From an uncultured Deinococcales bacterium (GTDB lineage Bacteria > Deinococcota > Deinococci > Deinococcales > JAAFIG01), in assembly GCA_964247135.1 (NCBI GenBank), contig CAXTTL010000136.1, forward strand, positions 1 through 13,145: a stretch of DNA of 13,145 nt, in the 5' to 3' direction. The notes below the pieces were generated by a model. It saw only the letters and a program-made list of their open reading frames with translations. It made no database searches and had not been told where the DNA came from. The position numbers and the translations under genes are program-made. This document shows positions 10,671 to 13,145 of the stretch, piece after piece (the stretch's first letter is position 1; each line of letters starts with the position of its first letter).

Positions 10671-11009
10671 AAGGCATTCTCGAGCGGGATTTGAGAGGTC
10701 ATAAGCGTATTTTGAGGCTGGCGGCAAGAAAAACACCAGAATCTTGAATAGGGTTCTCGAGCTTGAATGCCGTAAAAAACGGCAAAATGTTTGTTCTTCA
10801 CAGCTTGAATCACACCATTCTCGAGCCACCCAAAACCCAGAAATTTCTTAGCGCTTTCCTCATTTAACCAGCATTTTAAGGGCAGTTCTTTAACTGGGCT
10901 TCATTTCTAAAGATTTTTGAATGCTTCCTCACAGGCGACCAAAGTTCTGGCAGTACCTTTATGACACGAAAGCTCCAAGCCAGTGATTCAGGAGCAAAGG
11001 AGAATGACC

Positions 11010-11951
11010 ATGAAAACAGCCATCAAATTCGGAGCCGCAGTCATCACCGTCGCCCTCTCGAGCGTTCTTTCAAACGCCTTCGCCCAAAGCACCCCAATCG
11101 TTCGCCCACAAGCCGTGATCGTCAACCCAGTCGAAACCCAATTGCAAACCACCGTCAGCGTGGACCGTGGCAACAACAACCCGGTTTACAACATTGGCGA
11201 ACGCATCAAGATTTCGGTTTCGGTCAACGCCGACGCTTACGTTTACGTTTTCAGCATCCACAGCGACGGTGTGATCGATTTGATCCTGCCCAACCGTTTG
11301 TCAGGCGGCAATCAATTCTTACACGCCAATGAGACCCGTACCTTCCCACCCGCCGGTGCAAACTACCAATTGAGCGTTGACGGACCTGCCGGACAAGACA
11401 AAATTCTGGCGGTCGCCTCAAAACGCCAACTGAACCTGAACGAACTGACCAGCTTTAAAAGCAATCAACCGTTCGCCAACGTCACCGTTCAAGGGCAAGA
11501 CAACCTGGCTCGAGCGCTGGCAGTGGTCGTCACCCCAGTTCCAAGCACCGATTGGGTCACCAGCTACACGCAATTTCAAGTTCGTGGCGGTGGACTGGTC
11601 AACGCCCCAGCCCCACAACCACAACCCGTCGTCGTGGTTGCCCCACAACCACAACCAAGCAACGTGATCTTCGCCGACCTGAACTTGGTGATTTACCCCA
11701 ACGCCCAAATCGTGCAGTTTATCCAACGTTACGAAACCGACGGCGAAGTTGAAATTCTGTTTCGCAGCAACGCCACGATTGGACAACTGGCAAGCTTTTA
11801 CAAAAATGCGGTCGAAGCCCGTGGTTGGAGCACCCGCAAAGCAAAACTCCGCAACGACAATGCCAAGCTCGAGTTTCGCAAAGGTTCAGACAAACTGACG
11901 CTCGAGATTAACCGTGAGGATGGGATGTATCGGTTGACGATTCAGAACTAA
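11010..11951 (+). CDS. Secreted DUF4384 domain protein with Pro/Gln linker and C-terminal domain
   Basis: AAGGAG SD 7 nt before ATG 11010. Signal peptide ending AFA-Q. Y.IGE.I.ISV.VN.DAYVYVF.I..DG....ILPN (DUF4384-like), APQPQP repeats. Confidence 0.82.
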   Translation: MKTAIKFGAAVITVALSSVLSNAFAQSTPIVRPQAVIVNPVETQLQTTVSVDRGNNNPVYNIGERIKISVSVNADAYVYVFSIHSDGVIDLILPNRLSGGNQFLHANETRTFPPAGANYQLSVDGPAGQDKILAVASKRQLNLNELTSFKSNQPFANVTVQGQDNLARALAVVVTPVPSTDWVTSYTQFQVRGGGLVNAPAPQPQPVVVVAPQPQPSNVIFADLNLVIYPNAQIVQFIQRYETDGEVEILFRSNATIGQLASFYKNAVEARGWSTRKAKLRNDNAKLEFRKGSDKLTLEINREDGMYRLTIQN

Positions 11952-11979: not shown

Positions 11980-12018
11980 TGGACGCGCCAGAGAGAACCT
12001 GGCGCGTTCAGTTTTTTT
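11980..12018 (+). terminator. Rho-independent terminator after the DUF4384 gene
   Basis: TGGACGCGCCAG-AGAGAAC-CTGGCGCGTTCA followed by GTTTTTTT. Confidence 0.85.
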
Positions 12019-12367
12019 AACGCTCCCAACCCGCAAGCGCCCGCACGAACCCCGCCACTTCCTCGAGTTCCTTGTCCGAAATCGTGGTTTTGTCAAACGC
12101 TGGCATTTGCGCCGCGCCCATGATGCGCCCCACCCGAATTCGGGTTTTGATGTAATCCAAACTTTTCAAGTTCACATTGTCCACCATGCGTTTGCCGTAA
12201 CCGCCATTGCCATTGTCATGACAGCGAATGCAGTTGTTCTTCTCGAAAATGTCCCGACCTTCAGGATGCAAGGCGGTGGCTCGAGACAAGGCTTGGGTGC
12301 TGTTGTCGCAGGAAACGAACAACAGTGTGGCAGCGAAAACAACAGCTGTAACTCGGGCAAACTTCAC
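12017..12367 (-). CDS. Monoheme cytochrome c lipoprotein
   Basis: Lipoprotein signal MKFARVTAVVFAATLLFVS-C, heme motif CIRCH, distal Met in QMPAF. GTG 12367 is preceded by CAGAAT-6nt (leaderless-type). Confidence 0.88.
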   Translation of the reverse strand: MKFARVTAVVFAATLLFVSCDNSTQALSRATALHPEGRDIFEKNNCIRCHDNGNGGYGKRMVDNVNLKSLDYIKTRIRVGRIMGAAQMPAFDKTTISDKELEEVAGFVRALAGWER

Positions 12368-12460
12368 AGGTTTATTCTGCCCCTTAAAACCAAAACAGCC
12401 TAGGGGCAAGCATCACCTGAAACTCGAGGTGCAGCCCGTTTGAAATTCTTTAAACTTAGG

Positions 12461-12625
12461 TTACTTCAGGAGGCTCACCAAGCTGGCAATAACTCCAGCG
12501 ATGATGGTCACAATGGCTGCCCAGAATTCCACTTTTGACTTCACGCTTTTCAACGTTTTGGCTTTTGGTGGTGTGCGTTTGCCTTGCGGCTTGGCACGTT
12601 TTTTGGTATGCTTCTTGTGTAGCAA
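12461..12625 (-). CDS. Small basic membrane peptide, candidate type I toxin (54 aa)
   Basis: TTG start 7 nt after a strong AGAAAGGAGG SD. MLHKKHTKKRAKPQGKRTPPKAKTLKSVKSKVEFWAAIVTIIAGVIASLVSLLK has a Lys/Arg-rich N-terminus and a single C-terminal hydrophobic helix. Confidence 0.7.
   Translation of the reverse strand: MLHKKHTKKRAKPQGKRTPPKAKTLKSVKSKVEFWAAIVTIIAGVIASLVSLLK
12584..12612 (+). promoter_or_regulatory. Putative antisense-RNA promoter embedded in the peptide ORF
   Basis: TTGCGG-17nt-TATGCT with an extended -10 TG (TGGTATGCT). Confidence 0.55.
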
Positions 12626-12689
12626 GGTAGTACCTCCTTTCTGGAGGCATACCCGCACCCTTCCGACAGGGTGCGGGTTCTCCGTTTTA
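12619..12689 (+). ncRNA. Putative cis-antisense antitoxin RNA (about 70 nt)
   Basis: Starts 6 nt after the -10 box and covers the start codon and SD of the peptide gene. Ends in a perfect 11-bp hairpin ACCCGCACCCT-TCCGAC-AGGGTGCGGGT (12651-12678) followed by TCTCCGTTTT. Confidence 0.5.
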
Positions 12690-12756
12690 TCGGTCATCCG
12701 ACCCTGAATTCACAACCCAAGTTGTCAAGGAACATTTTCAAACGGGCTACGCCAGC

Positions 12757-12765
12757 AGCATAACA
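12757..12765 (-). promoter_or_regulatory. Extended -10 promoter for the peptide mRNA
   Basis: - strand TGTTATGCT followed by 6 nt gives a predicted +1 at G12750, exactly the first base of the inverted repeat. No well-spaced -35. Confidence 0.5.
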
Positions 12766-12780
12766 TGAAGTTCAAGCATC

Positions 12781-12813
12781 AAAAAAGTGCGCCGCTCGAG
12801 TTGCAACGCACTT
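12781..12813 (-). terminator. Rho-independent terminator of the DnaJ-class gene
   Basis: - strand AAGTGCGTTGC-AACTCGA-GCGGCGCACTT-TTTT (G-U pairs on this strand), 15 nt after the stop codon. Confidence 0.75.
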
Positions 12814-12828
12814 CAAAATGGCAATGGA

Positions 12829-13145
12829 TTAAACCGTTATTTTGGCGAGCTTCTCGTACAACTCGAGTTCTTCCGCGCTGGGTTCTTTGGGAACCGCAAT
12901 CCGAATCTCGAGCAGCGCATCGCCGCGCGATCCATCGCGTTTGATCCAACCTTGCCCGCGAAGGCGCATCACACGCCCAGCTTGCGAGCGGGCTGGAATG
13001 TTCACCTCGCCGCGTCCCTCGAGTGTGGTGGCGGTAATCGTTCCGCCCACCACGGCAATCGGCGCTGGAACTTCGGTGACGATGCGCACGTCATCACCCT
13101 CGAGTTTGATGTTCGGGTCAGAATCGAGTTTGACGGTCAGCATGA
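12829..13145 (-). CDS. DnaJ-class chaperone (CbpA/DnaJ C-terminal domain), 3' portion only
   Basis: GDD......V....AV.GG.I...TLEG...V.IP..SQ.G..MRLRGQG......RGD.L.EI.I.VP..PS.EE.ELYEKL is a DnaJ_C pattern. The gene extends beyond the window. Confidence 0.88.
   Translation of the reverse strand, partial: MLTVKLDSDPNIKLEGDDVRIVTEVPAPIAVVGGTITATTLEGRGEVNIPARSQAGRVMRLRGQGWIKRDGSRGDALLEIRIAVPKEPSAEELELYEKLAKITV

Follow-up and report, generated by a model that had tools for sequence, protein, structure and literature searches.

Positions 12765 to 12430 on the minus strand of contig CAXTTL010000136.1 (assembly GCA_964247135.1, an uncultured Deinococcales bacterium) raise the question of whether a small peptide gene, its folded mRNA and an antisense RNA encoded across it together make up a toxin-antitoxin (TA) system of type I. 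All positions are those of the 13,145-nt window, i.e. the whole stretch of DNA analysed. The hok/Sok systems combine a small membrane peptide, an end-closed mRNA, a sequestered initiation region and a short cis-antisense RNA, and they occur as multicopy loci that include decayed copies. An earlier note on this DNA had likened the locus to hok/Sok and AapA/IsoA; comparative tests support the architecture on which that likeness was based, while activation by 3' trimming is not reproduced by folding. Our answer is that 12765-12430 is probably an autonomous type I TA-like module of a new family, analogous and not homologous to hok/Sok and AapA/IsoA. The anatomy of the locus, covariation in its RNA, its multicopy and patchy spread, decay that strikes the open reading frame (ORF) only and a separate small RNA (sRNA) gene fit such a module. 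By analogy with characterised systems we infer that an antisense RNA would be transcribed and would serve as the antitoxin, and that the peptide would be toxic through membrane damage.

The 54-residue peptide and its folded mRNA

Read on the minus strand, the interval 12840-12360 holds, in this order, the end of a dnaJ-like gene, a terminator, the extended -10 element TGTTATGCT, a leader of about 125 nt and a TTG-started frame of 54 codons. The elements of the predicted sense transcript are the following.

12757-12765, minus strand: sense promoter with the extended -10 element and a predicted +1 near 12750; TGTTATG[CT]T in 24/24 main-family copies with upstream DNA
12706-12752, minus strand: 5' arm of the long-range 5'-3' mRNA helix; 6/11 core pairs with compensatory changes
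12651-12678, both strands: GC-rich 11-bp hairpin, in the mRNA leader; compensatory changes in 5/10 pairs
12631-12649, minus strand: hairpin sequestering the Shine-Dalgarno (SD) sequence (CCUCC / GGAGG); TGCCTCC (12649-12643), loop AGAAA, GGAGGTA (12637-12631)
12461-12625, minus strand: peptide ORF, 54 aa, TTG start, polybasic N-terminal half and C-terminal transmembrane helix; conserved open frame, dN/dS (ratio of nonsynonymous to synonymous substitution rates) 0.42
12509-12619, minus strand: internal ORF helix, CACAA (12619-12615) with TTGTG (12513-12509) and more pairs at CAAA and TCTG; RNAalifold, one compensatory pair
12430-12475, minus strand: 3' arm of the long-range helix, comprising the last codons, the stop codon and the 3' untranslated region (UTR); folding and covariation

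Sequence, hydropathy and AlphaFold2 agree with the earlier description of the frame as encoding a basic N-terminus followed by one C-terminal transmembrane helix. Residues 1-33 contain 13 lysines or arginines for a net charge of +12, Kyte-Doolittle 19-residue windows reach 2.2-2.4 across residues 32-54, and the AlphaFold2 model (28-sequence alignment) has a helix at residues 20-53, its block mean pLDDT (predicted local distance difference test) being 90 and 93 in residues 31-50, and an N-terminus of low confidence. On this model, a tail-anchored membrane peptide with an unstructured basic N-terminal half is plausible, and in size and hydrophobicity the product resembles type I toxins, i.e. small membrane peptides of less than about 60 aa. 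The proposed frame is the sole one open in 24/24 copies. Its dN/dS is 0.42 overall, 0.27 in the N-terminal motif, 0.65 in the middle and 0.32 in the helix, values drawn from sequence pairs that are not independent, and synonymous variation is present across the membrane-helix codons; this substitution pattern indicates that the peptide is under purifying selection.

The start of the frame is unusual across the family. In the window GGAGG lies 7 nt upstream of the TTG. Among 25 main-family copies the codon found 5-9 nt after GGAGG is ATC in nine, ATA in seven, ATT in two and TTG in seven, and never ATG or GTG; five copies from a third genus, described below, start with TTG (three) or CTG (two) and encode peptides of 53 aa. 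Altogether, a weak start codon (AUC, AUA, AUU, UUG or CUG) is found in 30/33 loci. Gene callers choose upstream codons, giving 77-81-aa forms, or miss the gene, and most copies with an AUH start (AUC, AUA or AUU) are uncalled. Members present in protein databases are named 'hypothetical' or carry evidently spurious names, and those inspected are mostly mis-started (77-81 aa), because the real starts would be AUH, UUG or CUG. The earlier expectation that annotation would miss or mis-start the locus is thus borne out.

Other reading frames were considered and rejected. The ORF list for the window gives a longer, 78-aa ATG form (12697..12461), the extension of which crosses the hairpins, varies in length by non-triplet indels and is closed 1-7 codons upstream in several copies. 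An in-frame GTG within the GGAGGTG of most second-genus copies leaves no SD spacing and is out of frame in the window's genus. On the plus strand, ORFs of 68 aa and 31 aa that overlap the locus fare no better, antisense frames having stops in 13-24 of 24 copies.

The predicted mRNA is tightly folded. As had been read from the sequence earlier, the 5' end set by the extended -10 element and a +1 at about 12750 is complementary to the stop-codon region and engages it in a long helix, and the SD hairpin TGCCTCC-AGAAA-GGAGGTA is present and forms in the minimum-free-energy structure. The stretch 12752-12425 folds at -128.2 kcal/mol (z = -6.9; 0/100 shuffles as good), with the first 40-45 nt or so paired to the last codons and the 3' UTR (helix partner 12465-12430) and with both hairpins formed. 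In the second subfamily the extended -10 element of the sense promoter is TGTTATAGT or TGTTATATT.

Counts on RNA structure refer to 23 aligned units. Four structures emerge from their RNAalifold consensus, namely end helix, GC hairpin, SD hairpin and internal helix, the last joining codons 3-9 to the Phe-Trp...Ile-Val codons. In this consensus 96.8% of alignment cells are paired, as against 37-48% with the partner columns slid, and 12 pairs show compensatory, i.e. two-sided, change; in 0/500 shuffles was the paired percentage, the covariation score or the number of compensatory pairs matched. A fourth measure, 'further pair types', does not discriminate, 82/500 shuffles reaching the observed value. 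In the internal helix the ATT and GTG codons show no synonymous variation in 23/23 rows. The SD hairpin forms in 94% of alignment cells, with 0 compensatory pairs and just one-sided G-U changes; its support is conservation, together with a shifted UCACC/GGUGA version in the third genus.

End pairing is retained in diverged copies. Duplex energies of the end helix average -38.9 kcal/mol for cognate and -29.6 kcal/mol for non-cognate arms, with -34 to -39 within groups vs about -24 across them. In 8/8 further, more diverged loci the end duplex reaches -48 to -66 kcal/mol, beyond all 100 shuffles each, and 5'-3' end pairing over 30-40 nt with compensatory changes is present in 32/32 modules of known 5' end. 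The pairing is stronger on the sense strand than on its complement in 18/24 loci for the end helix and in 22/25 for the hairpins, a moderate bias that favours RNA-level selection acting on the mRNA. The combination of SD sequestration and long-range pairing that marks the mRNAs of type I systems is thereby found here.

According to folding prediction, the SD is unpaired with a probability of only about 0.02 in full-length, -20 nt, to-stop and nascent forms alike, in 24/24 copies. Most copies, those of the second subfamily included, have an upstream ACGGAG box; it is missing from the L035/L036 lineage, where the antisense T-run alone persists. This box could act as an anti-anti-SD, pairing with the anti-SD arm and opening the SD.

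A candidate antisense RNA gene and its orphan relatives

Two plus-strand elements overlap the 5' part of the peptide ORF and the leader.

12584-12612, plus strand: antisense promoter TTGCGG (12584-12589), 17 nt, TATGCT (12607-12612), with TGG before it, inside ORF codons 5-15; conservation
12619-12688, plus strand: predicted antisense RNA of about 70 nt (candidate antitoxin), spanning the start codon, the SD hairpin and the GC hairpin; sequence

The promoter TTGCGG-17-TATGCT and the 11-bp hairpin, both listed in the earlier note, are where it had placed them. In general form (TTGnnn, or TTAnnn in one locus, then 17 nt and TGnTAnnnT) the promoter is conserved in 33/33 modules (25/25 + 8/8) and in 6/6 of the orphan loci discussed below. 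On the plus strand the GC hairpin 12651-12678 is followed by TCTCCGTTTT, which makes it one of two plus-strand terminator-like sites in the scan; hairpin and TCTCCGTTTT together would terminate the antisense RNA. For the 74-nt antisense stretch the folding energy is -32.5 kcal/mol (z = -5.2).

The promoter also leaves a trace in the codons that it overlaps. At alignment codon 7 the residue is R, H, P, S or A, yet the third base is T in 23/23 rows; at codon 8 the residue is T, N, I or S, yet the codon reads A-n-C in 23/23 rows; codon 9 is AGA or AAA only, and the Gln codon that gives the TTG of the -35 element is CAA in 23/23 rows. The invariant bases in codons 7-8 coincide with the TA and TG of the antisense TGnTAnnnT, and the variable base coincides with its n.

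Beyond the modules, each of the six genomes of the window's genus carries one orphan locus (6/6: L067 in the window's own genome, at G000:C53:13624-13758, and L068, L070, L072, L073 and L075). Conservation at these loci is limited to the -35 TTG, a variable 17-nt spacer, TGnTAnnnT, 6 variable nucleotides, about 68 nearly invariant nucleotides and a run of 6-7 T, and the 68-nt block carries both hairpins. Neither a toxin ORF nor a sense promoter is found at any of the six, and the antisense promoter is therefore conserved there free of coding constraint. From sequence comparison, this pattern marks out an sRNA gene, a homolog of the module's predicted antisense RNA, and we regard it as the strongest support for the putative antisense gene. 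The orphan sRNA gene has no match in Rfam.

Loop sequences set the copies apart. The GC-hairpin loop differs in each paralog of a genome (6/6 in genome G013, 4/4 in genome G017), and 19 different loops occur among 23 copies, the stems being near-invariant. Such loops fit pair-specific loop-loop recognition, with neutral drift as a possible alternative.

Distribution, decay and surroundings of the family

The complete module is present in 33 loci, the window's and 32 further ones. When 41 related genomes were searched in six frames with the peptide, it appeared in 4/5 other genomes of the window's genus (E <= 2e-9; best E of 0.23 in the fifth, G005), in 7/8 genomes of a second genus within the same family, where a genome holds as many as 6 copies, and in a second copy in the window's own genome. 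A covariance model built on the leader found further copies as well as two groups that the peptide search had missed, a second subfamily and the modules of the third genus, and G005 was reached only by the RNA model R1 and by a profile of 28 peptides, which matches all 5 genomes. Copy number rises to 6-7 per genome in the two uncultured Deinococcales genera. Across the order, the 28-peptide profile finds the family in 25/363 genomes (by genome family 12/18, 12/125, 0/128, 0/23 and 0/68), among them 11/111 genomes of a third genus with one copy each. In a phylum sample of 301 genomes, matches to the 23-peptide profile A1, which predates the addition of the second-subfamily and third-genus peptides, fall in the window's family only. 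The third genus is probably Deinococcus, since three database members are attributed by source name to cultured representatives of that genus (Deinococcus carri, D. metallilatus and Deinococcus sp. S9).

In an alignment of 26 loci, conservation runs from the -35/-10 promoter to the terminator and the DNA beyond is unrelated. Flanking genes vary by copy and include rpoC, aroC, dnaJ and genes for a P-type ATPase, MazF, two PIN proteins, a Dam-type methylase, a PD-(D/E)XK transposase, a caspase-DUF4384 protein and SNF2. With its own promoter, dispersed and multicopy occurrence and patchy distribution, the module behaves as an autonomous unit. Second-subfamily modules, from the window's genus, are complete, with a differing GC-hairpin sequence, end pairing of their own and an ATG start, and third-genus modules have the SD variant GGUGA paired to UCACC, their own end pairing and their own terminator. 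Multiple paralogous loci with covarying stems, as foreseen earlier, do exist, and a search for homologs that keep the peptide and lack the SD hairpin, the end pairing or the antisense promoter returned none (94% of cells, 32/32 and 33/33, respectively). As a side observation, four paralogs (L029, L032, L027 and L037) stand beside MazF/PemK or PIN toxin genes, or beside a Dam-type methylase and a PD-(D/E)XK transposase, in what look like variable or defence-like islands.

Decay of the family strikes the peptide gene. In L002, the second copy in the window's own genome (G000:C13:28151-28369), the helix codons are broken up by an insertion and a TGA in frame, with the promoter, the hairpins, the end pairing and the antisense promoter intact. 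Two copies of a diverged subfamily are also damaged: in L077 (G013:C67) the ORF is split by an insertion of about 200 nt with inverted repeats at its bounds, resembling a miniature inverted-repeat transposable element (MITE), and in L078 (G014:C52) the start position reads ACG and the helix is lost. L080, from the third genus, has an in-frame TAA. All four decayed copies retain RNA elements. Such loss of the ORF alone and the layered repression of translation are indirect hints that the peptide may be toxic. Two database relatives, P0020 and P0021, have an extra segment in the helix region at about the place where L002 is interrupted, which may be a recurrent insertion site.

Reference collections hold little that resembles the module. 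For the peptide, Pfam has no family above cut-off (a sub-threshold CD20 match at E = 0.039), NCBIfam matches lie at E >= 0.008 and far from the cut-offs, 0/23 members match in PADLOC, and the ESM Atlas returns unnamed clusters only, with a best score of 0.86; a tblastn search of PLSDB plasmids with the third-genus peptide gave no match. Rfam has no match to the RNA at gathering threshold or at E <= 1, and its hok/sok RNA models are unmatched. Protein databases contain 15 cluster representatives of the family among 1.84 billion proteins and 35 proteins among 5.8 billion. Literature searched in full text for Deinococcus together with type I TA systems, or together with antisense or small RNA and toxins, gave no such locus in the titles and abstracts of the matches listed, and the review PMC8309996 does not mention Deinococcus.

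Contigs from relatives were found in public metatranscriptome runs. A sequence-run search returned 19 runs, each with a small share of the sampled words. Contigs from four metatranscriptome runs (four studies) were aligned to 12150-13000 at 85% likeness, uncovered parts carrying no reading. Seven contigs of 140-326 nt, which are 90-95% alike and therefore come from relatives, cover 12458-12734 only, and none extends to the dnaJ-like or cytochrome c genes. The 326-nt contig covers nearly the whole predicted mRNA and has an adapter-joined end at the equivalent of about 12435, in the 3' pairing box; a second contig has its adapter-joined end near 12615, which could be an mRNA fragment end or the antisense RNA start. 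These contigs hint, weakly, at transcription of the unit as a discrete RNA.

On its upstream side the module is bordered by the following features.

12829-13143, minus strand: 3' part of a dnaJ/cbpA-like gene, the upstream neighbour (Pfam DnaJ_C, E = 2.6e-15)
12781-12814, minus strand: intrinsic terminator of the dnaJ-like gene, a 12-bp stem followed by U6 (-19.6 kcal/mol, z = -3.2)

This terminator, which is also found at the orthologous loci L006 and L007, insulates the module from the upstream gene, in line with the earlier description of an insulated unit that is free of the palindrome CTCGAG: the 12-bp stem with U6 is there, and no CTCGAG occurs between 12423 and 12795. That interval is a 372-nt gap, the fifth largest of 105, where the mean spacing is 123 nt. 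The palindrome itself occurs 106 times in the 13,145 nt vs about 3.4 times expected from base composition (e.g. at 11901, 11967, 12062, 12280, 12423, 12795 and 12862) and is frequent in related loci too. Immediately 3' of the module lies a cytochrome c gene (12017-12409, minus strand; Cytochrome_CBB3, E = 3.4e-11), for which a GTG near 12369, with a lipoprotein-like signal after it, looks more likely to be the start than the TTG at 12409 in the ORF list. Farther away, 10983-11951 on the plus strand encodes a DUF4384 protein; a caspase-DUF4384 protein adjoins a paralogous module elsewhere (L033:1768-3042), which may be coincidence.

A probable type I module and its alternatives

The mechanism that we propose is as follows. 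Transcription of the minus strand from the extended -10 promoter would yield an mRNA of about 320 nt encoding the 54-aa tail-anchored peptide. This mRNA would be built for poor translation: its first 40 or so nucleotides would close the molecule by pairing to the final codons and the 3' UTR, and a strong SD hidden in a hairpin together with a weak start codon (UUG in the window; AUC, AUA, AUU or CUG in relatives) would restrain initiation. From the plus-strand promoter in codons 5-15 an RNA of about 70 nt would be made, ending at the GC hairpin and a U-rich tail. It would match start codon, SD hairpin and GC hairpin with full complementarity and, on the model of Sok and IsoA, would bind the mRNA via two complementary hairpin loops, block ribosomes and probably trigger cleavage of the duplex.

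Several observations weigh against this reading. The antisense RNA and the toxicity of the peptide are predictions, and the metatranscriptome contigs carry no strand, level or reliable ends and could, formally, stem from DNA carry-over. A consensus promoter scan found 0 promoter-like sites in 12000-13145; both promoters fall below the scan's 9-of-12 rule and therefore rest on their extended -10 elements and conservation, the scan being uninformative for promoters of that type. Invariance of the codons under the antisense promoter has an alternative cause, in that the predicted internal helix, with one covarying pair, takes in the sense-strand C-A (codons 8 and 9) of the antisense -10 element as well; the T-A of the same element lies outside that helix. 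Both the second subfamily and the third genus have a weak antisense U-tract, and the weak start is not universal, ATG being the start in all three second-subfamily loci. Thermodynamic folding of 24 copies does not predict 3' trimming as an SD-opening step, and no route to translation was identified. No clear intrinsic minus-strand terminator was found between the window's module and the cytochrome c gene. The CTCGAG gap is not a family trait, because second-genus copies have CTCGAG within the ORF. Finally, the topology of the peptide is the reverse of that of most characterised type I toxins.

One alternative would have the peptide harmless. In this scheme a small membrane protein, such as a stress or envelope factor, has its translation tightly restrained by a structured leader and adjusted by an antisense RNA in cis, the SD hairpin possibly being temperature- or IF3 (initiation factor 3)-sensitive via the weak start, with no TA logic involved. 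Purifying selection on a plausible tail-anchored membrane protein is what such a factor would show, the SD is sequestered in every predicted form, as in RNA thermometers, and toxicity is a prediction. What this scheme does not explain is the occurrence of up to 6-7 dispersed paralogs per genome in unrelated contexts, their patchiness between genomes, and the recurrent decay of the ORF only while RNA elements persist; moreover, three stacked layers of translational repression plus mRNA end pairing are typical of toxic peptides, by comparison with the hok literature and with the abstract of PMC5416894. We judge a harmless protein unlikely. A still lower probability attaches to the RNA being the main product, with the structured mRNA (about 320 nt) or the antisense sRNA (about 70 nt) regulating other targets and the ORF incidental or secondary, as in a dual-function RNA. 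The orphan sRNA gene, which stands without an ORF in 6/6 genomes of the window's genus, and the very high nucleotide conservation across the leader speak in its favour; a dN/dS of 0.32-0.42, synonymous variation across the helix, one open frame in 24/24 copies and a strong SD correctly spaced from a start-type codon in all copies make it very improbable.

A further question is whether the unit is a mobile element, i.e. a non-autonomous, MITE-like sequence in which the apparent 5'-3' pairing amounts to terminal inverted repeats kept for a transposase. A multicopy unit of about 330 bp with 16-40-nt inverted repeats near its ends, dispersed among unrelated genes, has that appearance, several copies lie at contig ends, and inverted repeats would also co-vary at both ends. 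The conserved block, however, outreaches the repeats on both sides (by the promoter -35/-10 and, in the second genus, by the terminator), which places the repeats inside it and gives it the limits of a transcription unit. Where one side alone has changed, the result is mostly G-U on the sense strand, which pairs better in 18/24 loci, the ORF is under purifying selection, and the repeat sequences are wholly different between subfamilies with pairing retained; a target-site duplication was not noticed, although no systematic search was made for one. We consider this the most improbable of the explanations, and a type I TA-like module remains our preferred one.

Among known systems, the closest likeness is in organisation. 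With hok/Sok of Enterobacteria, and with chromosomal loci homologous to hok, the module shares a membrane peptide, an end-closed mRNA, a sequestered initiation region, a predicted antisense promoter in the 5' part and decayed multicopy loci. It differs in having no sequence similarity (Hok/Gef PF01848 and the hok/sok RNA models are unmatched), no mok-like overlapping leader ORF that we could see, a reversed topology, weak starts, no predicted SD opening on 3' trimming and its Deinococcales lineage. The Ibs/Sib, Ldr/Rdl and Zor/Orz systems are dispersed chromosomal copies, each with its own cis-encoded antisense RNA; the module is likewise present in several dispersed copies, and its hypervariable loops could give cognate specificity, whereas the peptides are unrelated and here an orphan antisense-type sRNA gene is found in each genome of the window's genus. 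A basic N-terminus with a C-terminal helix reverses the topology of most characterised type I toxins. YonT has one hydrophobic helix and a long polybasic stretch in an order that is the reverse of that in the module peptide. By description, then, YonT resembles the module peptide in size and in pairing a helix with a polybasic stretch, and differs in domain order. The abstract of PMC5848175 on yonT/SR6 of the Bacillus subtilis prophage SPbeta gives the toxin as 58 aa and has the antisense RNA overlap the yonT 3' end, another difference from the module. In the review PMC8309996, type I toxins are described with N-terminal or central helices.

In aapA1/IsoA1 of Helicobacter pylori, according to the abstract of PMC5416894, the fold of the full-length mRNA impedes translation, 3' processing frees the SD and AapA1 is a peptide of 30 aa; the family was recognised via conserved mRNA structure and not via peptide sequence. 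The module resembles it in the inhibitory full-length fold and in two stem-loops available for loop-loop contact with a fully complementary, here predicted, antisense RNA over the 5' region. It differs in the length of the peptide (53-54 aa vs 30 aa), in that the aapA1 SD is exposed by 3' processing whereas the module's SD stays paired in all folded forms by thermodynamic prediction, and in the lack of homology per Rfam and Pfam.

More tentatively, and as a possibility that we hold well short of even chances, this may be the first Deinococcota type I family: a tail-anchored toxin with a polybasic cytoplasmic arm of about 30 residues that probably binds nucleic acid, with translation gated by near-cognate starts, an orphan sRNA acting in trans as a shared safeguard or regulator, and variable loops giving specificity in cis. 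If this is true, near-cognate gating and SD sequestration would tie toxin synthesis to initiation fidelity, i.e. to IF3 level or stress.

To our knowledge, going by the papers found, type I systems have been described mainly in Proteobacteria, Firmicutes and Epsilonproteobacteria. A family found in Deinococcales through its RNA architecture would extend the type I class to a deep-branching, stress-resistant lineage with cultured, tractable members. The few, mostly mis-started entries in huge protein databases make it an example of how genes escape annotation, and the combination of end pairing, an SD hairpin and near-cognate initiation would offer a clean natural system for layered translational silencing.

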